Source: an uncultured Candidatus Saccharibacteria bacterium
Lineage (GTDB): Bacteria > Patescibacteriota > Saccharimonadia > Saccharimonadales > CAYLGV01
Direction: 5' to 3'
NCBI GenBank assembly: GCA_964394925.1
Contig: CAYMZG010000005.1
Coordinates: 26,873 to 90,872 of the forward strand
Length of the DNA: 64,000 bases
In this document: in pieces, positions 18,437 to 54,202 of the stretch
Layout of the letters: each line of letters opens with the position of its first letter
How positions within the stretch are numbered: the stretch's first letter is position 1
Position numbers and translations under genes: made by a program
Notes under the pieces: generated by a model
Database searches by the model: none
Told to the model about the DNA's origin: nothing
The model's input: the letters and a program-made list of their open reading frames with translations, nothing else

Positions 18437-18512
18437 GAGTTACCCTCGTTAAATCGTGCTAATGCTTTATGGTGTTCAGTGTAGCATATCTGGCCAGTGG
18501 TGAATAGTAACT

Positions 18513-20252
18513 TCATGACATTGCTGCCCCAACTGGTTTTTGTGCTTCTTGCTGTTGTAATTCCATAGCTTTCTGGCTGCTAATACGGGGTACGTTAATG
18601 TAGAAGGTGCTGCCCTTTTTGATTTCGCTCTCTACCCAAATGCGGCCGTGGTAAAGTTCAATAATTTTGCGGCAAATAAACAGGCCCAGTCCTGTGCCAC
18701 CAATCGTTCGAGTGGCGGAGTTGTCGACTCGATAAAACTTCTGAAATAGGTGTGGTACGTCTTCGGCTGGAATGCCGTTGCCAGTATCACGAATGAAGAA
18801 CTGAATCACTTCGTCGTTACCTGTTAGCCCAACGGATATCTTGCCCGAGTCGGTGTACTTTACGGCATTGTCGAATAAGTTAGTGATTACCTCGCGCATA
18901 CGGTCGGGATCAATGTAGGCATAGTACAGAGGTCGTACTACGCGATCCCCGCCTGCGCTGCTAGATGTGGGGTGGCTGTTGGTGCCCACCGTAAAGTCTA
19001 GGAGTAGCCCTTTTTTCTCGGCGGCAAAACGTAGGCCATCGGTCAGTTGTTCAAGATAGGCACCCATTTCAACTACCACGGGATGATTGACGAGGCGACC
19101 ATCTTCGGCCTTAGCGCTAGTAAGCAGATCCTGGAACAGCTTGCCAAGGTGCTGCGTGCTCTCGTGCGCCTTTTCGAGGTAGCTTCTTGCTTTGCTGTCG
19201 ATGCGAGTGACCTTGTCGTTGAGGGCCAAGGCTAAATATCCCTCAATGGCAGCCACTGGGGTGCGCATCTCGTGGCTAGCGGTACTAATAAAGTCGGCTC
19301 GTCGATGTTCCTCCGTACGCTGTTCGCTCACATCTCGGATGACCGCCACGGCCCCCACTGATTCACTGGTTTTAGGTAGGATGATTGGTGAAATGACCAG
19401 TGAAACAATTTTGTTATTGGCAACATCTTTGTTAATGAGCTGGACAATGTTGGTGACTGTTTTATTGTCATTAACCACTGTTTTGAAGGGATACTGCTCG
19501 GCTGGCAGCTCTCTGCCGTCTTCCATGTTGAACTTAGCTACCAGCTGCACATCCAGGCCTGTGGCTTCGTCGATTGACCAGCCAGTAAGGGCCGAGGCGG
19601 CGGGGTTGAATAAGCTAATCTTGCCTTCAACGTCGGTTACAATCACTCCATCGGTAATGGACTGTAGTAAGATCTCGGCTTGTTGCTGGTTGCTCTTGAG
19701 CGCTCCAGACAGTTTAGCAATCTGAACGTTGACGCGGTCAACATACATTCGCCGCCAGATCATGTAGGTAATGCCGCCCCAAACGTAATTAACTCCCACA
19801 ATAATCAGATTGGTGCTGTTGATAGTAACCTGCCCCTGGCTATTAGTCATGAGCAGAATGAGGTATATGGTGATCAGTACCTCAAAGCTGAGGATCATGT
19901 AGCCACCGAACATGCCACCAAAGAAGAGCAAGGCCAGCCAAAGTATCTCAAATGGTGAATGGAGTTGCCCGGTGCTGTTCACGAAACTGATACATAGCAA
20001 CATCACAAGTAGGTGTAGACCAAAGGTGGCAATTCGAGCGGCATAGTTGCGCGCTAGATAGTTATAGAAAACGGCGCGAAAGATCACCGCAATGGCCGCG
20101 ATAGTACCAGTAATAACGTTAAAGCCGTGTTGCTGCAGATCTTTGAGGGCTGGCACAAAGAACGTAAGCACGCATGCCAGGAGTGTAACGACGGCAACGA
20201 TCGTGAGTAGCCAGCTGTAGAGCTTGTACCAAGATTCTTTTACGGATTGCAT
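18513..20252 (-). CDS. membrane sensor histidine kinase (multi-TM, PAS-like, HisKA, HATPase)
   Basis: H-box FISTASHEMRTPVAAI, N-box NLFDNAVKYT, DTGNGI and GGTGLGL. Confidence 0.85.
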   Translation of the reverse strand: MQSVKESWYKLYSWLLTIVAVVTLLACVLTFFVPALKDLQQHGFNVITGTIAAIAVIFRAVFYNYLARNYAARIATFGLHLLVMLLCISFVNSTGQLHSPFEILWLALLFFGGMFGGYMILSFEVLITIYLILLMTNSQGQVTINSTNLIIVGVNYVWGGITYMIWRRMYVDRVNVQIAKLSGALKSNQQQAEILLQSITDGVIVTDVEGKISLFNPAASALTGWSIDEATGLDVQLVAKFNMEDGRELPAEQYPFKTVVNDNKTVTNIVQLINKDVANNKIVSLVISPIILPKTSESVGAVAVIRDVSEQRTEEHRRADFISTASHEMRTPVAAIEGYLALALNDKVTRIDSKARSYLEKAHESTQHLGKLFQDLLTSAKAEDGRLVNHPVVVEMGAYLEQLTDGLRFAAEKKGLLLDFTVGTNSHPTSSSAGGDRVVRPLYYAYIDPDRMREVITNLFDNAVKYTDSGKISVGLTGNDEVIQFFIRDTGNGIPAEDVPHLFQKFYRVDNSATRTIGGTGLGLFICRKIIELYHGRIWVESEIKKGSTFYINVPRISSQKAMELQQQEAQKPVGAAMS

Positions 20253-24367: not shown

Positions 24368-25663
24368 TCAATCGGCATCGGCCTGAACACTCGGTAACTC
24401 CAAGAGATTGGTCGTATAGCGTGGGCTGCGCTGGTTATAAATGGGCCGCCACTGTTGCCCGAGGCTTTCTGTCGCAAAGCGTACGGTGTGTTTGCCGTAG
24501 CGCTCGTTTAGGTTGTCTATGCTGGCCATGCGAGCTGTAGATTTTTCGTAGCAATGATGACTCACCTCTTTTAAAAGATCAAGCTGCAGTTCACTGGCGG
24601 GCACAAAGTCATACAACATAACCCCTGCTCGGTGATAGTATTGGTGCGAATCGTATAGCTTATGAAGTTCTGACACCAAGTCATGAATTAGCTCGCCGGT
24701 GTCGGCGGTTGGTGTGCTGTAAGTTATCTCTTTAAACCATTTTCGGTAGCCGGGTTTATGCCTATTGGTTGTGAGGAATAGGGCGGCTCGTTTGGTGACC
24801 TGGCCACTCCGGCGGAGGCGGAAGGCGGCCTGGGTAGTGAATGTGGCAATGGCGGCTTCGAGTGAGCCCAGGTCGTTTGTATCGTGGCCAAAGGTGCGGG
24901 TTCGGGCAATACTTTTTCGGGATTTACCCTCTTGATCGAGCGGATAGCACGATAGGCCGTTGAGCTCGGCAATTAATTGCCGACCACGGATGCCCATAAG
25001 CTGCTGAGCATGCTTGGGCTGAAGTTGGGCCAGCTGACGCGCGTTCATAATGCCTTCGGCACGCACCTTTGGCGCAAAACGCCAACCAATGCCCCACACG
25101 TCTTGTACTGGCATGGCTTCTAGTTGAAAACGGACATTTCGAGCTGGCTCCCCAACGAAGTTAAGTACACCGTGTAGTTCAGGGTCTTTCTTGGCGCGCT
25201 CGCTGGCCAGCTTGGCAAGGGTTTTTGTAGGGGCGATGCCAATTGAGACCGGTATGCCTACCCAGCGCCAGATCGCTTCACGAACGTGTTGCCCCCAGGC
25301 TACATAATCTTTGATGGGCAGTTCCTGGAGATCGAGAAATGATTCGTCAACAGAGTACACTTCAATACGCGGTGTTATAGAGGTGAGAACTTCGGTAATA
25401 CGTCTGGAAATATCGCCGTACAGATCAAAATTAGCACTAAACTGCACCACGCCATGCCGCTTAAAAATATCACGATGTTTAAACGCGGCTCCAGCCATGG
25501 GGATGCCGAGCGCCTTAGCCTCGTTACTGCGAGCCACCACACAGCCGTCGTTACTACTGAGCACTACTACGGGGGTTGTGGCCAAATCTGGTCGGAACAC
25601 TCGCTCGCAACTGACGAAGAAGTTATTGCAGTCAATAAGGGCAAAGATCGGCGGCTTTTTCAT
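24368..25663 (-). CDS. umuC: Y-family translesion DNA polymerase, UmuC-like
   Basis: [21 protein letters not shown] and SVDESFLDL. The start was moved to MKKPPIF (ATG 25663). Confidence 0.85.
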
Positions 25664-25683
25664 GGTTTTACTGCCAGCTGTGC

Positions 25684-26028
25684 TTATCGGACGGCACTGT
25701 CCCGATATTGGTGAATGGCAGCCGTGACACTTCCCCATACCTCAGCGTGCTCGGGGATTTTGTGCTTAGGTGACACAGCAAACTGGCCATCCTTGACCCA
25801 GACAGCGGGATCATTGCCACGTGGTGTCACAGCTCGGTCAACCAACAACACATCTCCGGCAAAAATGCCCTGCCTGGCCCATTCATTGCCGGTGATGCGC
25901 ATCATATAGGTGCTAGCGCTGTGCTGAATTAATAGTTGGTTAAGGTCAATGCCTTGCAGTGAGCTATCGGTAGCCGGGTTGGGAAACCCATCATGCACTG
26001 ATACGCCGCTCGGATTGTTGTAATACAT
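25684..26028 (-). CDS. umuD: UmuD-like S24-fold protein lacking the Ser/Lys catalytic dyad
   Basis: [16 protein letters not shown]...[20 protein letters not shown] aligns with the UmuD core. The ATG at 26028 follows a GAGGAG RBS. Confidence 0.75.
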
Positions 26029-26185
26029 CGTCAATCTCCTCATATAGTAATTTGCTTGCTTTTCGCCGTGTAAAGCGCCACTGGCGCCAGCGCGTTCGCC
26101 AGACCGCATACCAATACTGTTGTGGTGGCTCGCGGAGTGGCGTGACGAGCGGTGTTTCTATGAACAATACTTTCTTGGTGCTCAT
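25991..26185 (-). CDS. hypothetical 64-aa ORF
   Basis: Its ATG overlaps the stop of the upstream ORF (ATGA), and its 3' end overlaps umuD-like by 38 nt. The Arg/Trp-rich composition makes it doubtful. Confidence 0.3.
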   Translation of the reverse strand: MSTKKVLFIETPLVTPLREPPQQYWYAVWRTRWRQWRFTRRKASKLLYEEIDDVLQQSERRISA

Positions 26186-26421
26186 GGCTTGGCACCACCA
26201 TAGAGCAGGATGCGTAGATCTGGTAGGAGCAGCTTGGCTTCTGCTACACGCATGCCGGTGGTGATGCCAAGCTTACGCGCCTCCTTCGAGGCCGCTGTAA
26301 TAATCCCCTGGTTCAGTCGTTTCATGCGTTGCCGCCGATTCCCCGGCTGGTAGGCTGCAAACGCCCAAGCCCGTTTCATTTGTTCTTTGGTTGTGACATT
26401 CATCATAAGTTGCATAATCAA
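26182..26421 (-). CDS. 79-aa ORF resembling the N-terminal segment of Y-family polymerases but lacking the catalytic DxD-FF motif
   Basis: GIITAASKEARKLGITTGMRVAEAKLLLPDLRIL resembles DinB [34 protein letters not shown] (recalled from memory). Confidence 0.4.
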   Translation of the reverse strand: MIMQLMMNVTTKEQMKRAWAFAAYQPGNRRQRMKRLNQGIITAASKEARKLGITTGMRVAEAKLLLPDLRILLYGGAKP

Positions 26422-26457
26422 TTCCTTTCGTTAGTAGAAGTTCTGAATGAGTGGTGC

Positions 26458-26700
26458 CTAAAGGGCTCGGCTGCTGAGTAGCGTCCAGGTGCGGCTGCCC
26501 GGCTCAAAGCTCAGACGGTACAGTTTTTGGCCGTCTGTCATGTTAAAAATTTGTATAAGATCTTGGCCTTTTTGCACCAAGCAGCGTAGGCCGTTTTGCA
26601 GGAAACTAAGTTCCCTGCCTTCGACTTCGATATTGCGTGGGAAACAGTGCTTTTGATCAAAGTAAAACGCAGTGACATTAACTACGGTGTTGTGAGACAT
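26458..26700 (-). CDS. hypothetical 80-aa protein, first gene of the umuDC-like cassette
   Basis: The ATG follows an AGGAG RBS with 7-nt spacing. Confidence 0.5.
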   Translation of the reverse strand: MSHNTVVNVTAFYFDQKHCFPRNIEVEGRELSFLQNGLRCLVQKGQDLIQIFNMTDGQKLYRLSFEPGSRTWTLLSSRAL

Positions 26701-26957
26701 ATACGACTCCTATAAGAGATTTAGGGATAACAAAAGAGTCAACTGAGACAAATTGTTCAGCCGGAACGGGTTAGAAGAGAGCTTTCTGGTAGGCTCGTGG
26801 GACCGTTCACCCGATGAGCAATTTACAGATAGCTAAATGTCGTATATGTGAGGCGCGCAGTGACCTGAGTATGCTTGCCTAGTCGTGTATAAAGCCTGGT
26901 GGCGATGGACGATTTGCCGGGACGGCAAAACTGACTCATGCTCCCATAGCTGCTTGT

Positions 26958-26987
26958 AGTATAGCCACTCAAAGTGCTCGTGGTCAA
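26958..26987 (-). promoter_or_regulatory. putative promoter with ~250-nt leader for the umuDC-like cassette
   Basis: On the minus strand: TTGACC (26982-26987), 18 nt, TATACT (26958-26963). Confidence 0.4.
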
Positions 26988-27023
26988 CGTTCGAATGATG
27001 TGCTTTTTGTCACAAACCTGTGC

Positions 27024-27458
27024 TTAAACCGGGCCGGGAGTTGCGGTTGACTGGTTAGGGTTAAGGCGTAATTGATCGAGGAACGTTACCAGCTCCTTGG
27101 GGGTAATCTCGGCCTTTACAATGTAGCCGTCGGCCTGGGCTTCAATGGCAGCACGACCCTCCTCGGCCAATTCAAGATTGGTCGTAACAATGATTTTGGC
27201 GCGCAGGTTTGGCGTCTCGCGTACGTCGCGCAGGCGATGCAGGATTTCGGTGCCAGTTAAGTTCGGCAGCATGATATCGAGCAAGATTACATCGTAAGCA
27301 TCGGTCTGGGCGGCCTGTAGCGCTTCTTGGCCATCAACAATTACCGTAACGTCGTAGCCAGCCTTGCTAAGGGCCCGAATATACAGCTCGCTAATAAATG
27401 GCTCATCTTCAATAATGAGCACGCGGGTGTTATTGCTGGGGGTGGGATTGTTGTCCAT
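27024..27458 (-). CDS. single-domain response regulator (REC only)
   Basis: VLIIEDEP...VILLDIMLP...IVKA. The start was moved to MDNNPTPS, 31 nt after the kinase stop. Confidence 0.85.
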   Translation of the reverse strand: MDNNPTPSNNTRVLIIEDEPFISELYIRALSKAGYDVTVIVDGQEALQAAQTDAYDVILLDIMLPNLTGTEILHRLRDVRETPNLRAKIIVTTNLELAEEGRAAIEAQADGYIVKAEITPKELVTFLDQLRLNPNQSTATPGPV

Positions 27459-27489
27459 AGTATTACTATTTATTGTACCCTGTTTATTC

Positions 27490-29031
27490 CTATCGTCGAT
27501 AAATTGAGTGGTTTTTGATCCAGCCGTGTGCCGTGCGAACCATGGCTTCATTGCCAGTGCCAGCTTTCAGCTCATCGGCCAGTTGGCTATAAGGTTTGAG
27601 TGTTAAGGCCACAGTCGTGCCCTCGCCCTCCTTAGATTGCACCCAAATGTCACCTCCATGGGCGTTAACAATGACCTTACTCAAATAGAGTCCGAGCCCG
27701 GTGCCGCTAACGGTGTCACGGTTACGGTGATTGCGGTGGAACTTCTCAAACAGGTTTGGCAAGACACTAGTTGGTATGCCGACGCCCTTATCGATCACAT
27801 CAATCTCAACGAGGTTGTCTTTGGTAAGCGTTGCTTTCATAAGCACCCCCTTGCTCTTGCCGCTGTATTTGATGGCGTTGTCGAGGAGGTTGCATAGTAC
27901 TTCATAGAGCGTCATACGGTCAGCGGCAACCGTGGGAAGTCCGGTCGCGATATCCAGCGAGACCTCCTTACCGGCGGCTTTTGCTCGTGTGGCCATGTCA
28001 CTGGCGGCATGTTTGATGAGTTCCTCAACACTCTCCTCGCCCAACTTAATGGCCAGCTGGTTTTCTTCAATGCGAGCCACGTTTAGGATAGTATTCACAA
28101 AGGCGGTAAGCTCATCGGCAGAGGCGCGCAGCCGATCCATGAACTTGGTCATCTCGGGATCGAGTTTGCCCTCAAGCTCGTCCTGGAACACTTCAATTAG
28201 CCCACGCATGAGGGTTAGTGGTGTGCGGAGCTCGTGCACCGCCAAAGCAATAAAGCTCAGCGACGTTTCGTCTTGTAAGTACTCCTCGGTGCGGTCGAAT
28301 AACGTCACAATGTATTCGATGCCAGTTGGGTTATCACGGTTATAAAAACCTTCCATGTCGCATTGGCGGTATTCACCGGGGCTGTCTTTGAACGAGACTC
28401 GCACCCGACGCCAATAGGCATTGTCGGTTATCTTATTGGCGGCACAGTCGGCGATCCAGCTCTCTAGGGTGAAGTCGCTTGGAAATTCGAGGTCCAGCGC
28501 TTCATAGATTGGTTTACCAAACAACTCAGCGCTGGGTCGGTGTGTAAAGTTAATTGCTGAGTCGCTCGCAAACGTAACGGCTTGCTGCTTATTAAATACA
28601 AACAGTGGTAACGGCAAGCGAGTTAAGATGTTACTCGACTGTGTTGCTTCTTTGCGGTGCTCGGCCAATAGCGTGTTTTGCTGAACGGTTGCCAGCTCAT
28701 AGAGCTGAAAGACCATGCTTGTGACGTATTGACTGCCGATCGACAACTGATCGGTTTGGGGCGCAGAAGATGGAGTCTCTGTTGGCGACAAGTGCAAGAT
28801 ACCGTCACCAAGGGCCTTAAGGGGGACTCTCGCTAGTTGCCCGGCCAAGGCGGCTGTAGCAAAGGCAGCGAGTAGGCTGAGGACAACGGTAATAGCAAAG
28901 GTGATGAGTGGCTGCAAGTGTCCAACGCTGTACAAGAGGTATCCCACTCCAAGCACAACCAGCTGGGCGAGGCTGGCCATGAGCCATATACGATTGCGTA
29001 TTTGACCAGTTGCTTGCTTTAAGTGCTCCAC
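27490..29031 (-). CDS. sensor histidine kinase
   Basis: H-box FIALAVHELRTPLTLM, NLLDNAIKYS, DKGVGI and GTGLGL. Two N-terminal TM segments. Confidence 0.85.
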   Translation of the reverse strand: MEHLKQATGQIRNRIWLMASLAQLVVLGVGYLLYSVGHLQPLITFAITVVLSLLAAFATAALAGQLARVPLKALGDGILHLSPTETPSSAPQTDQLSIGSQYVTSMVFQLYELATVQQNTLLAEHRKEATQSSNILTRLPLPLFVFNKQQAVTFASDSAINFTHRPSAELFGKPIYEALDLEFPSDFTLESWIADCAANKITDNAYWRRVRVSFKDSPGEYRQCDMEGFYNRDNPTGIEYIVTLFDRTEEYLQDETSLSFIALAVHELRTPLTLMRGLIEVFQDELEGKLDPEMTKFMDRLRASADELTAFVNTILNVARIEENQLAIKLGEESVEELIKHAASDMATRAKAAGKEVSLDIATGLPTVAADRMTLYEVLCNLLDNAIKYSGKSKGVLMKATLTKDNLVEIDVIDKGVGIPTSVLPNLFEKFHRNHRNRDTVSGTGLGLYLSKVIVNAHGGDIWVQSKEGEGTTVALTLKPYSQLADELKAGTGNEAMVRTAHGWIKNHSIYRR

Positions 29032-34703: not shown

Positions 34704-35915
34704 TTAGCTAGATAGCCGGCTGGTGAGGCGATGCCAAAGTGTTTCGCTGTTACTCGGCAGTGTTTTGGGGCTGCCCTCATTGGCCTTGGCTGAACTAGCC
34801 GTGTTGCCTGCTGGATCGGGCGTTATCTGCTCACCAGTAACAACCAGGCGGTTTAAGCTGGTCCCCGGTGGGTCACACGTTATGAGGCTGAACGTGGCCG
34901 GCTTGCCGTAATTGTAGTTAAGTACTGACACGTCCTGCGGTTTAACAATCTTCTTATCGAATACTTTGTAGACGTAGCGTTTGCCGTCTTTTTGCAGTAT
35001 GAAAGTATCACCGTTCTCCAGTCGTTTTAAGAGTACGAAGGCGAACTTATACTTTCCCTTGTTAAAGATATTATTTGCGGAGTGACCGAAAATGGCACCG
35101 TTGCCTAATTCACCCGGATTTGGAGTTGTTGCGTAATGCACCACTCCCCTGTCGAGTGCGTTATGAATAGCATTCTCATCAATCGACGGCTCGTCGTACA
35201 CAACGGGTATCTCAACGTTAATTTTAGGAATAATTATGAGCGGTTCGCTACCAGCGGTAGTTGCGCTGCCATCAATGATTATGGAATTGTTACTGACGGT
35301 TTTACTTGGGGATATAAAAGGAGCCAAGAAGCGTTCATTGAAAAAACTAAACAGTAGGATCACGACAACGATTAGGCCCGAGGCCAGCCCGAACGCCAGT
35401 GATTTGAGGTGGCCTCCGCGTTTGCCATGCCCTGAACGAGCTGCACCACGAGCAATTTGTTTCTTCACCGCACTCACCGTGCGTGTGCCGTGCGGGTGGT
35501 GTTTCCGTCGGGCAGCAGTATTATGCGAGACATGATCAACTGGTGTTGGTGTGGTGAGTTGGGCGGTTTTATCGGTCGCGGTAGTAGCGTGGTGTGGTCG
35601 GCCGTCACCGAGGCGTACACCACGTTTGTTGTATTCATCATAAAATTCTTGCCAGACCTGATGCTTCTCGTGGTCTGGCAGGGCGAGATAGTAGTTGTGC
35701 CAAGCGGTCTGGATTTCCGCTAACGAGCGGCCAGATTGGCTCAACTCAAGCATGTAGCGTTGATGCTTCGAACGGTGCGGTTCATGCTTGGCCTCAATGA
35801 TCTCCTCTTTGGCGTTCGGCTCCTCTGCATAGAGGTCATTTAGTTTGGCACGAATCAAATCCGCCGCCGGATTGGCGGCGTTCTCGGGCGCGTTGTCGTG
35901 ATTCGTATTGCTCAT
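34704..35915 (-). CDS. sortase-family transpeptidase with long N-terminal extension
   Basis: GHSANN and the TLxTC-type motif FSLITCDPPG. One TM segment. Confidence 0.75.
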   Translation of the reverse strand: MSNTNHDNAPENAANPAADLIRAKLNDLYAEEPNAKEEIIEAKHEPHRSKHQRYMLELSQSGRSLAEIQTAWHNYYLALPDHEKHQVWQEFYDEYNKRGVRLGDGRPHHATTATDKTAQLTTPTPVDHVSHNTAARRKHHPHGTRTVSAVKKQIARGAARSGHGKRGGHLKSLAFGLASGLIVVVILLFSFFNERFLAPFISPSKTVSNNSIIIDGSATTAGSEPLIIIPKINVEIPVVYDEPSIDENAIHNALDRGVVHYATTPNPGELGNGAIFGHSANNIFNKGKYKFAFVLLKRLENGDTFILQKDGKRYVYKVFDKKIVKPQDVSVLNYNYGKPATFSLITCDPPGTSLNRLVVTGEQITPDPAGNTASSAKANEGSPKTLPSNSETLWHRLTSRLSS

Positions 35916-35979
35916 ATGTGCTTATGCTGGATTAACAGATACCAGTATAGTATAATTTGGCGGTCATTCATACCGAGCC

Positions 35980-36064
35980 GGGCGAGTGGCGGAACTGGTA
36001 TACGCGCACGACTCAAAATCGTGTTCCTAACGGAGTGAGGGTTCGATTCCCTCCTCGCCCACCA
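35980..36064 (+). tRNA. tRNA-Leu (anticodon CAA), long variable arm, CCA encoded
   Basis: Acceptor GGGCGAG/CTCGCCC, anticodon arm CACGA-CTCAAAA-TCGTG, T arm GAGGG-TTCGATT-CCCTC. Confidence 0.9.
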
Positions 36065-36100
36065 AACAAACAGTCCAGCAACGCTGGGCTTTTTGTTTGG
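36062..36100 (+). terminator. long hairpin beginning inside the tRNA CCA
   Basis: CCAAACAAACAGTCCAGC-AAC-GCTGGGCTTTTTGTTTGG, with two small bulges. Confidence 0.5.
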
Positions 36101-36218
36101 TTGATGTGATGAGAACCCGATCGGCGAAGCCGGGGTTCGTTCATGACGAACACGCGCAGGTGCTCGCACCGAGCATGTGAGGAAATGCGAGCGAAGCGAG
36201 TTCCCTCCTCGCCATGCC
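36101..36218 (+). repeat. tRNA-linked GC-rich structured module, member B, ending in a copy of the tRNA-Leu 3' end
   Basis: Core GCAGGTGCTCGCACCGAG at 36156-36173. TTCCCTCCTCGCC at 36201-36213 matches 36047-36059. Confidence 0.6.
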
Positions 36219-36354
36219 CCTTTTGCTATATTCTTGTAAATCTCATACCTTGCATTAATACAAGACCCAGCCGCTTGAGCTGGGCTTGTATAGCGATACC
36301 TCCGTACCCCCACAACAGAGATAATAACAACTGAAACTGAGAACTGGCTGGTTA

Positions 36355-45877: not shown

Positions 45878-48808
45878 TTAATCTTTATTGAGGCGACGTT
45901 GATAGTGGCTCTTCAGTACTGCTAAGTAGCCAACAATCGGAATAGTCAGTAATGCTATCCACGGTCCAAAGAATTTACCAAGAACACCCGCGATCAAGAA
46001 TGCAATCAAGAACCACAGTATTGCGCTACCTGCTCGCACGCGAATTCGTAGGTATTCGGCCGCCAGATAGTAATATGGGAAGACAGTAACAACTAGGAAG
46101 GTGCTCGATAGCAGACCAAAGATAAGTACAACCGAAAGCCCCTGCCAGAATGGGCTGGCAATGGCTAGCGGAATGAGCGAAACTACAGCGGTCATACTGG
46201 TCGCAAATAATGGCCGGAAACGTTCCTCGAGGGCTGCGACGGTCGCATCAATCGGCGCCATGCCCTGCCGGCGAGCCTGATTGGCATAGTCAGTTAGCAG
46301 AATGGTGTTCTTAATACTCAGGCCAACCAGTGCGAAGAAGCCGAGCATGGTAAAGAAGCTGATAGCATTGTTGGTCAGTTTGAGCCCGAGCATGACGCCA
46401 AAGATACTGAATGGAATAGCCATGAAAATTAGCAAAGGCTGCAAGAGCGAATGGAACTCTATGGCCAATAAGATGAAGATGACCACGAGTAGTACGGGGA
46501 ACGCCAGGGCAAGTGTTTTGAAAGAGTTTTGATTGTCGGATTCTTGACCGAGGTCAAAACCGATAGCATCTTTCTCTAGTCCGTAGCCAGCAACGCGTGT
46601 GTCGTCGAACTCTTTTTTAACGGCCTTTTGTGCGAGGTTAACAAGTGTTGTTGTATCGCTACCATCAAAATTGGCGTTGACGGTTACTACGACTTTCCCA
46701 TCTTTACGTTCAATAATCGCTGCGTTTGAGACGGTGGGATTTACGAATCGTGCAACGCTGTTATTTGGTCGTTTAAGCTCGGCGGTTTTCATCCATGTTT
46801 GCAGATCATTGGCGAGCTTGTTAGCAGCTTCGCGGTTATCGGCCTTAATTTGAACCGTAAAGCCCGAAGAAGGCGGACCGAGGTCTACTTGCGATACTGC
46901 AACCGGCGCAGCTTGAAAGTCTTTATCAAACGATGCTTGAAGTTTCGTTACCAGCTCTGGTGAGGTAATGTCACGCTGGCTGTACGGCTTTAAATCAATA
47001 CTTAGTGCTGCCGACTGGGTGCTACCCGTAGCGTAGTAGGACGCTTTAACGAAGTTGTCGCCCAGTACTTGACTCGTCACTTTCTCGGCTTCAGCTGTTA
47101 TTAGCTCGGCTTCATCAATAGTTGTGCCGGGTTTGAAGCTAACACTTACCATAAGTTTATTTGTATCTTTGGATGGTGGGAAGATATTGAAGATAACGTC
47201 ACGGGCAATGAACATGCCAGCGCCAACAAACAGTAGTCCAACTAGGATGGCTGATGCGATCACAGCGCCGAGGCGCTTACGCGAACGACGTGCCCATAAC
47301 ATAGGGCTTGCAATGAACGCTGCCAAGCGTGCCTCAAAACCAGCGCTCAGCTCCTTAACTCCACCCTTCTTAAGCTGCTTTTTGCCCAATAAAAGGAACC
47401 TACTAAAGAATGGTATAAAGATCAATGCAACCAGCAAACTAATGAGTAGTGACGCGATCAGGGTAATAGGAATGGCGCGAATAAAGGTGCCCAGAATACC
47501 ACCCACGAATAGCAGTGGCGCAAAGCTTAGACAGGCGGTGAGCGTTGCAGCAAGCATAGCGCGACTAATTTTAGTCGCCGCCTCTTTAACGATTTCACGG
47601 CGGTCTTTTAGCCGTTTACGGGCAGCGTCAATCGCCTCAACCATAATAATGGTGTCATCAACAATGAGCGCCAAGCCTAGGATGAGGGCAAACAGCGTGA
47701 TGACGTTTAGGGTGTAGCCCGACAAGTACATGAGGCCAAGCGTTGCCAGCAAGACGGTTATCATAGAAACCACGGTTATTACCGATGCCCTAATTGCAAT
47801 GACTATTGAGCCAACAACTAGCACGGCTAGGAGGCCTTCGATCAACACGCGCTGTAGTTCGCCAATATTGTCTTTAATGGAAGGCGCAAAACTGGCACTT
47901 ACTTTCGCTCCGTAACCTTCGAACTGTGGCTGCTTCAACATCTCATTGATGGCTTTCTCGACGTTATTATTGAGTTTAATAACATCGGTGCCCTTTTCGG
48001 TCGATATACCAATTAAGACTGAGTTGTAAAACTTGTTGCTGTCGCCTTCCCGCTGGCCATAGCCATCGAAGTTTTTCTGCACCGATATGGGCTTGCCGGT
48101 AGCTGGATCAGTGCTGACTTCGTAGGGGCTTTTGATGAACACTGCTTTAACGCCTGGTATGTTTTGCTGCTTGAGCCAGTTAGCGGCTGCTTCGGCCTTG
48201 GCGGCAGTTTGTGCGGTAGGTGCCGTGCCGGTCTTGTCGTAGAACGAAATCGCTTCATCGATTTGCTGGATATCCCCACCGGTTGCCCCAAAGTATGGTG
48301 CGTTAAAGCGCACCTGCGCTTGTGGCGGTAATTTGCCAGAGTCTTTGACAGCTTTATCGAGTCGTGCCGAGGCGCTCTGGGCATCGGTGCCGTCTTTATA
48401 CTGGATTGAGACGGTAAAGAAGTTCGGTGCGCTGGTGCTACTAACTGCTTTAACGTCTTTATCGGCCAGGGCAATTTCTGAGATCGGCTTGGCGGCCTGC
48501 TGATCAACCTTGACTGGATCATTTACAAAATATCCGCCCGTGACAATGTTGAGGGGGATATTTACGCTCGGGAAACCTTCGCGGCGAAGAAAAGTGGTAT
48601 AGCTGAGGAAGCCAAACACAACAATTGTGAGCCACAGTACAAACGTCAGTAGTGGCCTATCAAAAAATAGTAGCGTCAGGCGCGGTAATAACTTATCTTT
48701 TGGTGCAATTTGTTTTGTTGGCGCGGTTTTTTGGCTTTTAGTGGCTTTGGTAGCTGTCTTTGCAGTAGCTTTTGTAGACTTTTCTCGTGTAACCGATTTC
48801 TTGGCCAT
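45878..48808 (-). CDS. RND-superfamily efflux transporter permease (AcrB-like)
   Basis: 976 aa with two TM bundles and two large extracytoplasmic domains. No adjacent MFP or OMF gene. Confidence 0.85.
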   Translation of the reverse strand: MAKKSVTREKSTKATAKTATKATKSQKTAPTKQIAPKDKLLPRLTLLFFDRPLLTFVLWLTIVVFGFLSYTTFLRREGFPSVNIPLNIVTGGYFVNDPVKVDQQAAKPISEIALADKDVKAVSSTSAPNFFTVSIQYKDGTDAQSASARLDKAVKDSGKLPPQAQVRFNAPYFGATGGDIQQIDEAISFYDKTGTAPTAQTAAKAEAAANWLKQQNIPGVKAVFIKSPYEVSTDPATGKPISVQKNFDGYGQREGDSNKFYNSVLIGISTEKGTDVIKLNNNVEKAINEMLKQPQFEGYGAKVSASFAPSIKDNIGELQRVLIEGLLAVLVVGSIVIAIRASVITVVSMITVLLATLGLMYLSGYTLNVITLFALILGLALIVDDTIIMVEAIDAARKRLKDRREIVKEAATKISRAMLAATLTACLSFAPLLFVGGILGTFIRAIPITLIASLLISLLVALIFIPFFSRFLLLGKKQLKKGGVKELSAGFEARLAAFIASPMLWARRSRKRLGAVIASAILVGLLFVGAGMFIARDVIFNIFPPSKDTNKLMVSVSFKPGTTIDEAELITAEAEKVTSQVLGDNFVKASYYATGSTQSAALSIDLKPYSQRDITSPELVTKLQASFDKDFQAAPVAVSQVDLGPPSSGFTVQIKADNREAANKLANDLQTWMKTAELKRPNNSVARFVNPTVSNAAIIERKDGKVVVTVNANFDGSDTTTLVNLAQKAVKKEFDDTRVAGYGLEKDAIGFDLGQESDNQNSFKTLALAFPVLLVVIFILLAIEFHSLLQPLLIFMAIPFSIFGVMLGLKLTNNAISFFTMLGFFALVGLSIKNTILLTDYANQARRQGMAPIDATVAALEERFRPLFATSMTAVVSLIPLAIASPFWQGLSVVLIFGLLSSTFLVVTVFPYYYLAAEYLRIRVRAGSAILWFLIAFLIAGVLGKFFGPWIALLTIPIVGYLAVLKSHYQRRLNKD

Positions 48809-48867: not shown

Positions 48868-49158
48868 TTACGGGCTTTCAGGTGTGTCGACAGGTTTACC
48901 TTGCCAAAAGAGTTTCCAGAGCATCGCCGGTGTGCGCTTCCAGCCTTCTTTTTTTGCTTGGTCTAAGGCTACACGCCCCGCCAGTCCAACCCCAATCAGG
49001 CCAATTAACACCTGAATTCCCCAGACGGTGGCACGAAATTCATTGCTTGCATCGGTGCTGGTGAGCTGGTTGTTATTATGCGCAATGTACAGACCAACTT
49101 GAGCGAACGGTAGCCATGAAATAACCACTAATATAATCCCTAAACGCAATCGTTTCAT
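48868..49158 (-). CDS. small membrane protein
   Basis: 96-aa ORF with two hydrophobic segments. Confidence 0.5.
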   Translation of the reverse strand: MKRLRLGIILVVISWLPFAQVGLYIAHNNNQLTSTDASNEFRATVWGIQVLIGLIGVGLAGRVALDQAKKEGWKRTPAMLWKLFWQGKPVDTPESP

Positions 49159-49185: not shown

Positions 49186-49725
49186 TTATTGGACATGAAT
49201 TGGCTCAAGCAGTACACCGTTCTTGGCCACATTTGTCTCGGTACACATGGCGCTGTTAAAACAGCACGGCCGTCGCATGCCTGAGTTCATCTTTGAGATT
49301 GCTACGTCTACTCTTCGTGCCCTCGTGCCAGCCTGTTTGGTGGATCTGATCCAACGTAGCCACTCCCATTGTGCCTTTGGGGTGACATTATCCCAGACGG
49401 CCTGCGCCTTGGGCGCTTTTTTTAAAGCTTTGGCGAGATCAGTTGGCGTTTCTGGTCGCGGCCAGTCAGTTGCCGGTTGAATAGTTACCTCAATATTGTC
49501 GCCATCTTGTACGTTAGCTAATGTGCGCAGTGCTTGATTGATATTAAACCAATGGCCACCTCGCCCATCGGGCTCAAGCGGCGCGGTAAATGGTTGGCCA
49601 TTAAGCGTACCATTGCCCATCACCAAGCCGCGTGAAGGTAGCTTCTTGCTGGCCTCACTCGGCAGATGCACAATGAGCCAATCTTCAATGGTATAGATTT
49701 TTACGCTAAAACTGATCTTTGTCAT
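49186..49725 (-). CDS. DUF1905 / YdeI-like protein
   Basis: The N-terminal beta domain has PSRGLVMGNGTLNG. The C-terminus has WEWLRWIRSTKQAGTRARR. Family recalled from memory. Confidence 0.6.
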   Translation of the reverse strand: MTKISFSVKIYTIEDWLIVHLPSEASKKLPSRGLVMGNGTLNGQPFTAPLEPDGRGGHWFNINQALRTLANVQDGDNIEVTIQPATDWPRPETPTDLAKALKKAPKAQAVWDNVTPKAQWEWLRWIRSTKQAGTRARRVDVAISKMNSGMRRPCCFNSAMCTETNVAKNGVLLEPIHVQ

Positions 49726-49732
49726 ATACGTA

Positions 49733-50302
49733 TCATACCAAGTGCGACGGTAGGTCTGGAAGTGTCAGTAATTGTTTGAGCTGATCCTTGCACCACCAGC
49801 TCCACGTATCATTGTCGTCGCTCAGGGCGTTCTTGGTGAACTCATCCCAGGTGAGCCAATGAAAATCATCAACTTCTAAAGCATTAGGTTGTGGCTCATC
49901 AGTGGTGTTGGCAAAGTATAACGGGCATACCTCATGCTCAATAATCCCGTTAAATGGTGGGGTTTGATACCGATAATCCGGCAACAAGCAGCGCAGATCT
50001 GTCACGGTCATACCCAGCTCATAGGCAACACGGCGTGTAATTGCGTCAGATATTGGTTCATCTGGCGCTGGATGGCCACAACAACTGTTTGTCCATACAC
50101 CAGGCCATACCTTTTTTGAATGGGCGCGCTGCGTGACCAAGATCTTGCCGTCGCTCCTAAAGATATACACCGAAAACGCCAAATGAAGTGGTGTGTTGGC
50201 ATGATGGCTCGCTAGTTTTGGCGCACTGCCAATTGGTTTGCCCGCATCATCGACCAATACTATGAGGTCTTGAGTGGCGGGATCAATGGTCGATTCGCTC
50301 AT
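49733..50302 (-). CDS. idi: isopentenyl-diphosphate delta-isomerase, type 1 (Nudix)
   Basis: LHLAFSVYIF...TNSCCGHP...E motifs. Confidence 0.85.
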   Translation of the reverse strand: MSESTIDPATQDLIVLVDDAGKPIGSAPKLASHHANTPLHLAFSVYIFRSDGKILVTQRAHSKKVWPGVWTNSCCGHPAPDEPISDAITRRVAYELGMTVTDLRCLLPDYRYQTPPFNGIIEHEVCPLYFANTTDEPQPNALEVDDFHWLTWDEFTKNALSDDNDTWSWWCKDQLKQLLTLPDLPSHLV

Positions 50303-51165
50303 TTTGCTAGCCTACTTACGATGAGAATCAGCGTTACCACAAACCCGGTGAACTGATTAAGTAGCAAGAATTTGCGCCAGCCTTTATTGGCCTGCTCACA
50401 CTGTTTGTCGGTGAGATTACGAAACGGCCAGACCATGGCTACGTAGCCAAGGGCTGGTATGCTGACCAGTATGGCTGGCCAACCGCAAAATGCCAGTAGT
50501 ACAATGGCACCGATGTAGAGCGCTAGACTCAGCTGAATGGTCTTAGCGGCACCCAAATATGTTCCAACCGAGGCAATCTTGGCGGCTCGGTCGGCTCGGA
50601 TATCTTGCACTGCTCCAAATGCGTGACTGGCACAACCCCACAGAAAAAACGCCAGCACATACGGCCAATACGCACTTCGCCAACCTGTAATGAGCATGGC
50701 AAAGATAAGTGGGCTCACAAAGTGAAAGCTGGAGTTCATTGAGTCAAGAAATGGCCGCTCTTTGAGCCGAAATGGTGGCATGCTGTAGGAAATTGCACCG
50801 AAGGCGATGAGGCCCAAGAATACATTGCTCAGTAGACTGCCGTGCACGAATAAGTAAGCTAATACAACAGCGTTAAAGAGGGCTGTGGCAACCAGCATAA
50901 AACGATGTGTTTCGGGTGGTAAAAGCCCGCCCTCAATACTATTCTTGCGCGGATTACGCAGGTCCGACTCATAGTCGTATACATCATTAACCACGTACAC
51001 CAAGCAGTTATACGGGATCAAAAAGTAAAATGTGGCGATAACAAAATAAGCATTTACAGAACCGCCGGTAGCAAGGTAGCCGGCCGCAAATGGAAAAGCG
51101 GTGTTGATCCACGAAATCGGCCGAGACGAGACGAGAATCTTTTTGAGTTTAGCTGCGGTGTTCAT
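50299..51165 (-). CDS. crtEb: UbiA-family prenyltransferase, lycopene elongase (CrtEb)-like
   Basis: Multi-TM protein with the Asp-rich NDVYDYESD motif. It lies directly after the two cyclase-domain genes. Confidence 0.7.
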   Translation of the reverse strand: MNTAAKLKKILVSSRPISWINTAFPFAAGYLATGGSVNAYFVIATFYFLIPYNCLVYVVNDVYDYESDLRNPRKNSIEGGLLPPETHRFMLVATALFNAVVLAYLFVHGSLLSNVFLGLIAFGAISYSMPPFRLKERPFLDSMNSSFHFVSPLIFAMLITGWRSAYWPYVLAFFLWGCASHAFGAVQDIRADRAAKIASVGTYLGAAKTIQLSLALYIGAIVLLAFCGWPAILVSIPALGYVAMVWPFRNLTDKQCEQANKGWRKFLLLNQFTGFVVTLILIVSRLAK

Positions 51166-51460
51166 AGTACTCCCAGAGTAGCACAACCACTATGACGGAT
51201 ACGACTGCATAGGCAAAGTCCTCGATGGGCGCGCGGCCAATGTAGGCGCCAAGGATCCGGCTTGTGTCATATGCCACAATGCCCGCCGCAATAATGAGCG
51301 AATCAAAAATTGCCGTCAGCCCCAACACAAGTGCAAGTGTGTACCAAAATGGTGTTACGATGCTCTGCCCTGAGCCATGGCGTATTAATTTTCGTATTAA
51401 CACATAGCCCACGCCGACAACCAGCGCAAGCACGAGACCATTCAATAGTAGATAATTCAT
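51149..51460 (-). CDS. crtYf: lycopene cyclase domain protein, small subunit (CrtYf/CrtYd-like)
   Basis: 103 aa, three TM segments, one of an adjacent pair of equal size. Confidence 0.7.
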   Translation of the reverse strand: MNYLLLNGLVLALVVGVGYVLIRKLIRHGSGQSIVTPFWYTLALVLGLTAIFDSLIIAAGIVAYDTSRILGAYIGRAPIEDFAYAVVSVIVVVLLWEYYEHRS

Positions 51461-51768
51461 GCCCCACCCCGCTTCTGCTTAATAATCAGGTACGTGATGA
51501 GGCTTGTGTAATTGAGGAGTAACAAAAAGAACAGTTCTTCAACTGGAAATTGCCCAATACGCAGGCCAATAAGGTAGTTGTTGTTACCGATGAAAAAGAT
51601 ATGCCAAGCTATGCCAGCGATGTCCCAAATAATGAATAAAGTAATACTAATGAGCATTATGGTTGCGGTTTGGCGTGGATGTTTAAAGAACGCTAGCTCA
51701 AGGTGGTAGTCAATACATAGTAAACCGCTGAGTGAAACGAGCAATGCTATAAGGTATGCGCCGGCCAT
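51457..51768 (-). CDS. crtYe: lycopene cyclase domain protein, small subunit (CrtYe/CrtYc-like)
   Basis: The start was moved to MAGAYLIALL. 103 aa, three TM segments. ATGA-type overlap with the next gene. Confidence 0.7.
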   Translation of the reverse strand: MAGAYLIALLVSLSGLLCIDYHLELAFFKHPRQTATIMLISITLFIIWDIAGIAWHIFFIGNNNYLIGLRIGQFPVEELFFLLLLNYTSLITYLIIKQKRGGA

Positions 51769-51784
51769 GTTTACTGTGCCATCC

Positions 51785-53311
51785 CTAAACCCTGATGTCC
51801 TTAATGGTCTTTGGTGCGCCAGCTGACCAGTCCTTGACCACATGCTTGTACACCAGTTGTGCGCTGATCAGGCACATTGGCACACCAATGCCCGGCTGGG
51901 TTCCACCTCCGACGTAATAGAGATTACGGACGCGTTTACTCTTCACACTTGGTCGTAGTATGGCGGTTTGTCGGAGGGTGTGGCTCATGCCAAGCGCGGT
52001 GTTTTGCCAAGCATTAAAGGCGTCGCCAAAGTAGCTTGGCGTACGAATTTCACGGAGCACAATCCGTTTGCGAAAATCAGGTATGCCTGTCATTGATTCG
52101 AGCTGTTCTAGGTAATGCTCGGTGTAACGAGCAACTGCTTCTGGTGTTTTGTCGGCGCCAGCTGGCAATGGCACAAGTACAAAAATGTTCTCATGTCCCT
52201 TGGGGGCGGTGGCTTTATCGGTAGCGGTGGTTTTACTCACATACATCGAGGCGCGCTCTGGCCATTCCCTCGTCTTGTAGATGTCGTCAAAATTCTCTTG
52301 CCACGCCGAGACAAAGAATAGATTATGATGCTCGAGCTCGGGCAGTGAACCCTTAACGCCCAGATACATTAGTAGGGCTGACGGCCCGGCTTGTCGTTTT
52401 GTCCAATAGGCATCGGAGTACGTGCGGTCAATCGGTTGCAGCAATGACTGCTCGGTAAAGTATAGGTCGGCATTTGATACAACAATGTCGGCGTGGATAC
52501 GTTGGCTACCAATCATGATGCCTTCGGCCTGCCCGGCCTTGGTAATAATCTGTTCCACAGGACTATCGTAGTGATACTGCACACCAAGTTCTGTGCCGAG
52601 TGCTACAAGGGCTTCGGTGACTGCGTGCATGCCTCGTTTTGCAGGATAGAATACCCCTTCCTGGAAGTCGAGGTAACTCATAAGTTGATACAGCGCAGGC
52701 GTTGTAAACGGTGAAGCGCCTAGGAATACGCTCGGATACTCTAAGATTTGCTGCAGCTCTTGTCGCTTAAAATGCTTCGCCACATAGCTATGAAGCGTCT
52801 GCGAAAACATTGGCAACAATGACGGCCCGGCGGCAATAACCTCTCGGTTCAACACATTACCATAGCGCTTAAACGGGTTATACAAAAAGTACTTAAGCGC
52901 TGCTTCGTAGTGACGTTGCCCACGCGCGAGGTACGAACGGAGTTTTTCGGCTGCCCCTGGTTCCAAGTTCTCGAAAACAGTCAGATTATCTTTGAGATTA
53001 CCCGTGATAGTAACAGGATCAATGGTTTCAAAGAAAACTTTGTAGGCCGGGTCGAGCCGTAGCAACTCAAAATAGTCGGCAACCCTTTTATCGAAAAGCT
53101 GAAAGTAGGCCTCGAACACATCACTCATGAGATACCACGATGGTCCGGTGTCAAATGTGAAGCCGTCTTTTTTGAGTAGGCCCATACGTCCGCCCGGCGT
53201 AGCGTTCTTCTCGTATACAGAAACCACCAGACCGGCTTTTGCCAGAATATTAGCCAGCGCTAAACCACCTGCCCCAGCTCCAATAATGACGGCAGTTTGT
53301 TTACTTGGCAT
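51785..53311 (-). CDS. crtI: phytoene desaturase
   Basis: AVIIGAGAGGLA FAD-binding fold and the C-terminal YYVGGGTQPGIGVPM. The start was moved to MPSKQTAV. Confidence 0.9.
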   Translation of the reverse strand: MPSKQTAVIIGAGAGGLALANILAKAGLVVSVYEKNATPGGRMGLLKKDGFTFDTGPSWYLMSDVFEAYFQLFDKRVADYFELLRLDPAYKVFFETIDPVTITGNLKDNLTVFENLEPGAAEKLRSYLARGQRHYEAALKYFLYNPFKRYGNVLNREVIAAGPSLLPMFSQTLHSYVAKHFKRQELQQILEYPSVFLGASPFTTPALYQLMSYLDFQEGVFYPAKRGMHAVTEALVALGTELGVQYHYDSPVEQIITKAGQAEGIMIGSQRIHADIVVSNADLYFTEQSLLQPIDRTYSDAYWTKRQAGPSALLMYLGVKGSLPELEHHNLFFVSAWQENFDDIYKTREWPERASMYVSKTTATDKATAPKGHENIFVLVPLPAGADKTPEAVARYTEHYLEQLESMTGIPDFRKRIVLREIRTPSYFGDAFNAWQNTALGMSHTLRQTAILRPSVKSKRVRNLYYVGGGTQPGIGVPMCLISAQLVYKHVVKDWSAGAPKTIKDIRV

Positions 53312-54152
53312 AGGCGGCGAGCTTTCCCTGTAGGAAAATCTTGAGTTTAATGCTTCGCTTAACACTAAAGCGTTGAGCAGCAATTTTAGCAGCGGGTTGT
53401 TTTGATAGCTCCTCTAGAAGCGCCAGATAATAGGTGTAGGCTAGTTTTGTAGCGCCTCGGGCAGCTTTTGGTAATTGTTCTATGTAGCTGCGGGCGACTT
53501 CAAAATCGTTAGAAATGTCGTCAATCACGCGCGCTTTAATAGACTCATCGAAATTTTCAAACGAACCATACGGAAAGTAATAGCGACCACGCAAGGCAAA
53601 GTCGTCGTGGATGTCACGCAGGAAATTAACCTTTTGGAAGGCCGCTCCAAGGGCCTTGGCGCCGTCGGCCAAATCCTGATATTGTTTATCATCACCCTTT
53701 ACAAAAACACGTAGACACATTAGGCCAACCACTTCGGCAGAACCGTAAATATATGTTTCATACGTAGCCTGCGTGAATGTCGCGGGCTTAATATCTATGC
53801 GCATGCTCACAAAGAATGGCTCGAGCAGTTCTTTGCCAATGTTGTATTGGTGTGCCGTTTCGATGAAGGCGTGAATAATTATGTTGCTACTAAAGCCTCG
53901 CTTGAGGGCGGCGTACACCTCGGCCTCGAAAGCATCAAGGAGCTGCCCGGCTTCCTTGCCCTGATACGTGTCCACGATCTCATCGGCAACTCGGACTAAC
54001 CCGTAGATATTGTAGATATCTTGCTGGATAGCCTTATCGAACAATGTGATGGCCGATCCGAATGATGAGGAAAAAGTTTGTGTTAGTACCTTGCTCGCCA
54101 ATCGCGCGCTGGTGGTGTAATCAGTTGTTGTTTGGCTATTTTTTGGGCGCAC
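53301..54152 (-). CDS. crtB: phytoene synthase
   Basis: VRVADEIVD, YGSAEVVGLM and VNFLRDIHDD motifs. Confidence 0.85.
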   Translation of the reverse strand: MRPKNSQTTTDYTTSARLASKVLTQTFSSSFGSAITLFDKAIQQDIYNIYGLVRVADEIVDTYQGKEAGQLLDAFEAEVYAALKRGFSSNIIIHAFIETAHQYNIGKELLEPFFVSMRIDIKPATFTQATYETYIYGSAEVVGLMCLRVFVKGDDKQYQDLADGAKALGAAFQKVNFLRDIHDDFALRGRYYFPYGSFENFDESIKARVIDDISNDFEVARSYIEQLPKAARGATKLAYTYYLALLEELSKQPAAKIAAQRFSVKRSIKLKIFLQGKLAAYAK

Positions 54153-54202
54153 TCAAATTTCATCCCTTTACTGCTTTAAACTATAGCACAACAGAGGTGT
54201 TA

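Follow-up and report, generated by a model that had tools for sequence, protein, structure and literature searches.

A probable cyclic C50 carotenoid operon, old and common in Saccharimonadia and lacking crtE in one narrow clade

How does a bacterium with hardly any biosynthetic capacity come to carry genes for a C50 carotenoid, and could it still make the pigment? The question is raised by a stretch of 64,000 nucleotides from an uncultured Candidatus Saccharibacteria bacterium (assembly GCA_964394925.1, contig CAYMZG010000005.1; hereafter the window), in which six co-directional, tightly packed genes occupy the minus strand at 54152..49733. The original prediction, made from the letters of the window, read them as overlapping or abutting genes for a phytoene synthase (crtB), a phytoene desaturase (crtI), two lycopene-cyclase-domain subunits (crtYe- and crtYf-like), a UbiA-type prenyltransferase (crtEb) and a type-1 isopentenyl-diphosphate isomerase (idi), and family matches and motifs bear out the position and identity of all six open reading frames (ORFs). 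Judged from these genes and their relatives, the cluster is very probably a functional operon whose product would be a yellow, cyclic C50 carotenoid like decaprenoxanthin, sarcinaxanthin or C.p.450, and the operon is old, common and vertically inherited in a large part of Saccharimonadia.

The first gene, crtB (53301..54152, on the minus strand like the other five), has a GTG start and encodes a 283-aa protein that matches SQS_PSY (PF00494) at 139.7 bits and retains both Asp-rich motifs, DEIVD57 and DIHDD180; its length is the same in the related loci L083, L085 and L086. The 508-aa product of crtI (51785..53311) carries the flavin adenine dinucleotide-binding motif GAGAGG11 and scores 486.6 bits on TIGR02734 (crtI_fam, cutoff 238.1), a model on which the actinobacterial orthologues behave alike; its best equivalog, NF058655 (CrtID), gives 564.9 bits, under the cutoff of 640, and the orthologues in L083, L085, L086 and L087 are also 508 aa long. 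Two 103-aa cyclase subunits follow, both above the TIGR03462 cutoff of 39.4: a crtYe-like one (51457..51768; 56.4 bits, and 27.8 on PF18916) with the motif PVEE75, whose place between crtI and crtEb is constant across related loci, and a crtYf-like one (51149..51460; 46.4 bits, and 35.4 on PF18916) with PIED78. Both subunits carry PxE(E/D) motifs and may be specific for C50 rather than C40 substrates. The 288-aa crtEb product (50299..51165), a putative lycopene elongase of the UbiA superfamily, is identical to the database protein P0001 (288 aa) and reaches 362.8 bits on NF009608/PRK13105 (cutoff 217), where the Saccharibacteria proteins score 355-363 and syntenic actinobacterial CrtEb proteins 434-462; its motifs NDVYDYESD60 and DIRAD188 are invariant among 19 homologues, and no solved structure sequence-related to it was found. 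The last gene, idi (49733..50302), encodes 189 aa, passes NF002995 (225.8 against 127) and TIGR02150 (144.7 against 105.8), and contains TNSCCGHP71 and EHEVCP122, the motifs that hold the catalytic Cys and Glu in this type of isomerase.

The junctions between these genes are as tight as their order suggests. From junction reading and the gene calls of relatives, crtI most likely starts at ATG 53311 (508 aa), the mechanical ORF reaching back to TTG 53383, and crtEb at ATG 51165 (288 aa); the likeliest start of the first cyclase subunit is ATG 51768, which gives the 103 aa originally proposed. With these starts, an 11-nt overlap between the end of crtB and the start of crtI is followed by a 17-nt gap, a 4-nt ATGA overlap (crtYe/crtYf), a 17-nt overlap and a second 4-nt ATGA overlap (crtEb/idi), and such overlapping start and stop codons suggest co-translation in a translationally coupled operon. 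A candidate extended -10 promoter element, TGCTATAGT (54180..54188, minus strand), was read by eye in the 50-nt gap between an upstream deacetylase gene and crtB; it stands 28 nt upstream of the GTG, with AAAGGGA, a possible ribosome-binding site, in between. A two-hexamer consensus promoter and terminator scan did not call TGCTATAGT, and its results were no better than those from shuffled sequence.

In the proposed pathway, CrtB would convert two molecules of geranylgeranyl diphosphate (GGPP) to phytoene and CrtI would convert phytoene to lycopene; CrtEb would then add a C5 unit from dimethylallyl diphosphate (DMAPP) to each end of lycopene, giving an acyclic C50 intermediate of flavuxanthin type, both ends of which a CrtYe/CrtYf heterodimer would cyclise. 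The type-1 IDI would balance isopentenyl diphosphate (IPP) and DMAPP and so keep DMAPP available as prenyl donor. The product would most likely serve as a membrane pigment, which may protect against photo-oxidative stress or adjust membrane properties. What we infer is the chemical product with its ring type, the part it plays in the cell, and where GGPP and C5 units come from. In Corynebacterium glutamicum, the system on which the proposed steps are modelled by homology, deletion and complementation of crtB-crtI-crtYe-crtYf-crtEb assigned each function, with DMAPP as the elongation donor (PMC3598387).

The contig belongs to Saccharimonadia and is no actinobacterial contaminant. Its TopA has many relatives at 72-93% identity, and the named ones (about 72-79%) are Candidatus Saccharibacteria, Candidatus Saccharimonadales or Patescibacteria. 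The gene set of the window is typical of the candidate phyla radiation (CPR) and of Saccharibacteria, with MraY-FtsW-MurG, TopA, DprA, Pth, Der and GltX, and it further includes a sortase, two type-IV pilins, DUF3048 and PEGA proteins, a MacB-type ABC transporter, RND transporters and two-component systems; Pfam scans of about 72 window ORFs revealed almost no biosynthetic enzymes. Gene content and TopA relatives therefore agree with the earlier description of a reduced, CPR-like context of little biosynthetic capacity. Three more assemblies from independent samples (L083, L085 and L086), whose CrtEb proteins are 79-84% identical to that of the window, share its flanks (DUF1905/OmdA, RND/MMPL transporter, RadC, SPOUT methyltransferase, MacB/ABC and DEAD helicase). 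The G+C content (GC) of the window is flat at about 0.49 and that of the cluster is 0.43-0.50, compared with an average of 0.68 in actinobacterial loci carrying the homologous operon. The tetranucleotide distance of the cluster falls at the 30th percentile of all 4.4-kb windows and its codon usage is as near the rest of the window as that of random gene sets (p=0.59), so the two comparisons uphold the impression, first gained by eye, that the cluster does not stand out from its flanks. Because TopA, shared synteny, composition and the GC difference (0.49 versus 0.68) all point to Saccharibacteria, recent transfer is excluded, as is the binning contaminant that the original prediction had named as a way in which it could be wrong.

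The operon is widespread. A CrtEb alignment scan with one genome per GTDB species gave at least 574 confirmed matches, and the best 80 were taken. They comprise nine metagenome-assembled genomes (MAGs) with Saccharibacteria-type names (49-56% identity), four otherwise-labelled loci that group with them, including L002 (62% identity), L032 and L075, and Micrococcales-type Actinomycetota (47-52%) of the genera Georgenia, Microbacterium, Arthrobacter, Cryobacterium, Demequina, Cellulomonas and others. The order crtB-crtI-crtYe-crtYf-crtEb occurs in every locus, 13 of them Saccharibacteria-type and about 65 actinobacterial; the match to Corynebacterium and other Actinobacteria, to which the original prediction had pointed, is thus confirmed by the C. 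glutamicum operon (PMC3598387) and by more than 60 Micrococcales loci. Among the best 120 CrtEb matches, which represent distinct 90% clusters, 112 are Saccharibacteria-type, that is, at least 112 clusters. Across the Saccharibacteria loci no conserved operon neighbours were found beyond the crt genes and idi, and no glycosyltransferase is linked to the operon; L003 also carries idi at the 3' end, and L010 has the full idi-crtE-crtB... layout.

Several labels conflict with the sequences that bear them. L032 (SEAL01000015.1, 'Chloroflexi') and L002 ('bacterium JPNG') fall among Saccharibacteria in the trees of CrtEb and of the concatenation, at 39-47% GC, L015 (JAKBFW010000037.1, 'Proteobacteria') carries a typical actinobacterial idi-crtE-crt operon, and the TopA protein P0335 is labelled Candidatus Limnocylindrales, at odds with its sequence; these contigs look mis-binned or mis-labelled. 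The wider CrtEb family also contains longer architectures. Many 50%-identity representatives are 545-720 aa long with the CrtEb-like part N-terminal, as fusions with an unknown C-terminal partner (fusion-type or long homologues include P0125, P0129, P0140, P0141, P0148, P0154-P0156 and P0161), and others, 380-430 aa in length, are extended at the N-terminus by about 100-145 residues that may be fused cyclase subunits.

The genes at the 3' end are not the same throughout the crtE-less group formed by the window, L083, L085 and L086. L086 (ERR14098938, 4321-5152) has no idi, and an opposite-strand short-chain dehydrogenase comes right after crtEb; L083 (11432-12241) has idi followed by the same short-chain dehydrogenase; in the window and L085, the OmdA gene comes next after idi. 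On the same strand of the window, as the third gene downstream of the operon, lies an RND transporter (ACR_tran and MMPL; 976 aa, 45878-48808, minus strand), separated from it by a 96-aa ORF (48868-49158, minus strand) and the DUF1905/OmdA gene (49186-49725, minus strand). This placement is kept in L083, L085 and L086 (84-86% identity) and absent from other Saccharibacteria loci. In the Saccharibacteria MAG at L073, the operon is followed by a gene for a CarS-like CDP-archaeol synthase family protein (2383-2952, plus strand; PF01864, 100.6 bits) and, beside it, a CDP-alcohol phosphatidyltransferase (2945-3583, minus strand), an isoprenoid/lipid head-group pair that is out of the ordinary in bacteria described as having no lipid synthesis.

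Phylogenies of the three longer enzymes separate the Saccharibacteria-type proteins from the actinobacterial ones. In neighbour-joining trees with a simple distance and 300 bootstraps, for which the best 66 matches served as the actinobacterial sample, the split has bootstrap values of 99.7% for CrtB, 100% for CrtI, 98% for CrtEb and 100% for the concatenation, and the window proteins are not nested inside any of the actinobacterial CrtB, CrtI or CrtEb clades. In a tree rooted on ten distant UbiA relatives, one clan (94%) takes in all 66 CrtEb proteins of actinobacteria. Divergence inside the Saccharibacteria clan exceeds that inside the sampled actinobacteria, and the nearest relatives outside the CPR are of Micrococcales type, at 47-52% identity for CrtEb, 37-43% for CrtI and 37-45% for CrtB. 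Many and varied Saccharimonadia carry the operon, and their copies make up a separate clan in all three trees; the immediate history of the operon is therefore vertical. A single ancient transfer between Saccharibacteria and Actinomycetota, in a direction for which we make no claim, is plausible from the gene layout, because L010 retains the actinobacterial idi-crtE-crtB... arrangement. Of the horizontal acquisition that the original prediction had allowed for, an ancient event therefore stays plausible, and acquisition by this genome individually does not; the accompanying view that any transfer was not recent is supported both by the clan split at 98-100% and by composition.

What sets the window and its narrow clade apart within the Saccharibacteria clan is the missing GGPP synthase. 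A tblastn search (E<=10) with one Saccharibacteria CrtE and one actinobacterial CrtE gave no match in the window, and none of the roughly 72 scanned ORFs matched PF00348, in agreement with the absence noted originally. In all seven of the other Saccharibacteria-type loci that reach upstream (L002, L003, L004, L008, L010, L087 and L088), crtE lies directly upstream of crtB, often overlapping it, and this was probably the ancestral Saccharibacteria layout, to judge by these loci. The loci without crtE are the window, L083, L085 and L086. Together they make up precisely the clade defined by a CrtEb identity of 79% or more, and the region upstream of crtB differs among these four genomes. Because the gene is present in seven relatives and absent in the four-member clade, its loss from the operon can be placed in the common ancestor of the latter.

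This loss invites a reading in which no phytoene can be made any longer and the remaining genes are a decaying remnant heading for loss. Its case is that crtE is absent in four of four clade assemblies, that L086 has no idi as well, and that a survey of freshwater CPR bacteria found Saccharimonadia to encode C10-C20 chain elongation only, without the C5 pathway (methylerythritol phosphate or mevalonate) (PMC9166423). The state of the genes argues otherwise. In each of the four genomes, which were assembled independently of one another, the five core genes have kept their full length and their catalytic motifs, the overlapping, translationally coupled junctions are kept, and in comparison with L083 the cluster genes have 0.09-0.26 nonsynonymous (pN) and 0.70-0.91 synonymous (pS) differences per site; as synonymous sites are saturated, no dN/dS is quotable and only pN << pS is used. 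The operon genes other than crtE are under purifying selection. Moreover, C. glutamicum ordinarily has its major GGPP synthase, IdsA, encoded apart from the crt operon, which provides a precedent (PMC5401885), and an organism that encodes MraY and MurG presumably must already have access to polyprenyl phosphates. We therefore regard decay as very improbable. A switch after the loss of crtE to a C30 pathway (CrtM/CrtN-like) from farnesyl diphosphate was considered and rejected: the enzymes have their orthologues in relatives that bear crtE (50-57% identity, same clan) and give no sign of a change of substrate as far as their sequences can tell.

Could the end product be a C40 carotenoid such as beta-carotene, perhaps as a source of retinal for a rhodopsin, with the UbiA protein serving quinone, heme or lipid prenylation? 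Heterodimeric C40 beta-cyclases of the lycopene-cyclase-domain type do exist (CrtYc/Yd), as is generally known. Some freshwater Saccharibacteria have rhodopsins without a retinal pathway (PMC9296517), and the annotation of a Saccharimonas-affiliated MAG with crtB, crtE, crtYf and 'ubiA' took the last gene as ubiquinone synthesis (PMC11484240). The UbiA protein of the window passes the CrtEb-centred model, however, and falls hundreds of bits short on UbiA, MqnP, chlorophyll-synthase and other prenyltransferase models: it scores 15-47 bits on UbiA, MenA-type and MqnP models (for example, ubiA_proteo 28.6 against a cutoff of 275, and MqnP 19.9 against 420 and 18.4 against 375) and 40.3 against 313 on ChlG. 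A quinone or heme prenyltransferase, the identity that the original prediction had named as fatal to its case, is ruled out by these scores. In addition, translational coupling joins crtEb to the gene of a cyclase subunit, and the two are inherited together in about 80 loci; a bacteriorhodopsin probe and the Pfam scans of the window ORFs revealed no rhodopsin-like ORF in the window or related loci, no carotenoid-cleavage (blh-type) Pfam match occurred among the scanned window ORFs, although no blh-specific search was made, and no further quinone-pathway genes were seen in the window. A C40 product is accordingly very improbable.

For Patescibacteria of Lake Baikal, an acyclic, bacterioruberin-type C50 carotenoid has been proposed; as the product of the operon in the window it is highly improbable. 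The proposal rests on homologues of lyeJ, crtD and cruF in Patescibacteria, including one Saccharibacteria genome (PMC9948471), and haloarchaeal Lye-type prenyltransferases are indeed detectable CrtEb homologues at 28-31% identity; the window, though, contains a single CrtI-family gene and hence no separate CrtD, its ORFs scanned against Pfam gave no CruF-like family match, two cyclase subunits lie between crtI and crtEb as in cyclic-C50 producers (PMC3598387), and CrtEb, at 363 bits on PRK13105, reaches just 125-153 bits on two neighbouring prenyltransferase models. Recent acquisition from an actinobacterial host, or an actinobacterial contig in a CPR bin, has next to no probability left: the nearest non-CPR homologues do come from Micrococcales with the same gene order (CrtEb 47-52%) and Actinomycetota are known Saccharibacteria hosts (PMC9296517), but the GC, tetranucleotides and codon usage of the cluster match the rest of the window and not the 0.68-GC actinobacterial loci, the housekeeping genes of the contig are Saccharibacteria-type, all three enzymes lie in a Saccharibacteria clan without any sampled actinobacterium, and the best actinobacterial proteins are just 37-55% identical.

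A functional, anciently inherited cyclic C50 operon thus accounts best for the data, and several points weigh against it. Without crtE, the clade of the window may lack a source of GGPP, and the supply of IPP is unexplained if Saccharimonadia are without a C5 pathway (PMC9166423). The Saccharibacteria operons are known here from their genes, so that the product is assigned by homology, and the window was set beside CrtEb and CrtYe/Yf of C. glutamicum, CrtE2 and LbtABC by description. Depending on the organism (Corynebacterium, Micrococcus or Dietzia), homologous cyclases form epsilon, gamma or beta rings, and the ring type is not readable from the sequences. As for the origin, the 13 Saccharibacteria-type CrtEb proteins fall outside the actinobacterial clan in the outgroup-rooted tree, where their own monophyly has a weak 31%; when 53 unlabelled 50%-identity representatives were added, with amino-acid composition (GARP/FYMINK) as a proxy for GC, the Saccharibacteria clan was placed beside the high-GC clan as its sister, on a weakly supported backbone. 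Among the distant and intermediate representatives, the informative labels were Acidobacteria/Chloracidobacterium, Agromyces, Dehalococcoidia and a JGI 'lycopene elongase/hydratase'. These simple-distance trees, with their best-match actinobacterial sample, resolve deep relationships weakly.

If the operon is functional, its precursors have to be accounted for. With crtE lost and the other genes kept, a GGPP source outside the operon is needed, and we infer that GGPP comes from a prenyl-diphosphate synthase elsewhere in the genome or from the host. Should the C5 pathway be lacking in this clade too, the cell must rely on an external supply of IPP or DMAPP. An operon-linked idi would make sense here because CrtEb needs DMAPP (PMC3598387), and idi would balance whichever C5 unit is obtained. 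It is a tentative idea, and on balance a doubtful one, that the clade builds its pigment from prenyl diphosphates (IPP/DMAPP, even GGPP) derived from a host that would presumably be actinobacterial. If true, this would be a concrete case of isoprenoid hand-off between episymbiont and host, which parallels the retinal hand-off proposed for Saccharibacteria rhodopsins.

Some other features of the window deserve mention. Two histidine-kinase/response-regulator pairs (17075-20252 and 27024-29031, both on the minus strand) have kinases with PAS domains; such sensors can bind chromophores, and light or redox control of pigment synthesis by these kinases is at most conceivable. At 24368-26421 (minus strand) lie a UmuC-like Y-family polymerase (IMS, IMS_C and DUF4113) and a UmuD-like S24 peptidase. 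A 79-aa ORF just upstream (26182-26421) resembles the N-terminal fragment of another IMS-family polymerase ('ARKLGITTGMRVAEAKLLLPDL'), and the interval 26109-27023 is otherwise without an ORF of at least 120 aa. A pterin-binding gene, dihydropteroate synthase-like (PF00809, 183.7 bits; 15594-16370, minus strand), stands alone among housekeeping genes in a genome that has otherwise little cofactor biosynthesis. A 133-aa mechanical ORF (35912-36313, minus strand) that overlaps tRNA-Leu(CAA) (35980-36064, plus strand) is almost certainly spurious.

The bare finding of carotenoid or C50 genes in Patescibacteria is already known from two papers (PMC9948471, PMC11484240). New here are the identification of a cyclic-C50, decaprenoxanthin-type operon, its spread and clan within Saccharimonadia, its kinship with Micrococcales-type operons, and the mapping of a clade-specific crtE loss with continued purifying selection on the remaining genes; two published readings of these genes, as ubiquinone synthesis and as a bacterioruberin pathway, are corrected. 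Saccharibacteria are seen as episymbionts of minimal metabolism that depend on actinobacterial hosts for lipids, nucleotides and amino acids, and a kept membrane-pigment pathway would be one of their few anabolic 'luxuries', pointing to exposure to light or oxidative stress. A C50 carotenoid is a visible, distinctive marker, which could help to track, sort or isolate uncultured cells. The crtE loss and the reported lack of a C5 pathway together turn the loose notion that precursors come from the host into a question that can be put precisely.

Among known systems, the C. glutamicum operon shares with the window the enzyme families and their order, the small heterodimeric cyclase subunits, the co-transcribed, tightly packed genes and a main GGPP synthase (IdsA) outside the operon. 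An RND/MMPL gene is near both, inside the operon in C. glutamicum (cg0722, of unknown function; PMC5401885) and three genes downstream in the window. The window differs in belonging to a Saccharibacterium of about 49% GC instead of an actinobacterium, in having no crtE, in carrying a type-1 idi at the 3' end and in showing no divergent MarR-type crtR regulator. The Micrococcales operons idi-crtE-crtB-crtI-crtYe-crtYf-crtEb (L005-L081) have the same core order and contain the closest non-CPR homologues; they form a separate, well-supported clan of high GC with idi and crtE upstream, whereas idi is downstream and crtE absent in the window. The operons of other Saccharimonadia MAGs (L002, L003, L004, L008, L010, L087 and L088) share the clan and the core order and differ by keeping crtE. 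More remote are the haloarchaeal bacterioruberin genes (lye/lyeJ-crtD-cruF), which resemble the window in a UbiA-family elongase, at 28-31% to its CrtEb, next to a CrtI-family gene, and differ in an acyclic product, in CrtD and CruF, in the lack of cyclase subunits and in a far greater sequence distance. The sarcinaxanthin genes crtE2-crtYg-crtYh of Micrococcus luteus, reportedly described by Netzer et al. in 2010, and the C.p.450 genes lbtA-lbtB-lbtC of Dietzia, reportedly described by Tao et al. in 2007, are each said to combine an elongase with a heterodimeric C50 cyclase, the elongase preceding the cyclase genes in M. luteus. Both clusters would follow the same enzyme logic as the operon in the window, reportedly with gamma or beta rings in place of epsilon.

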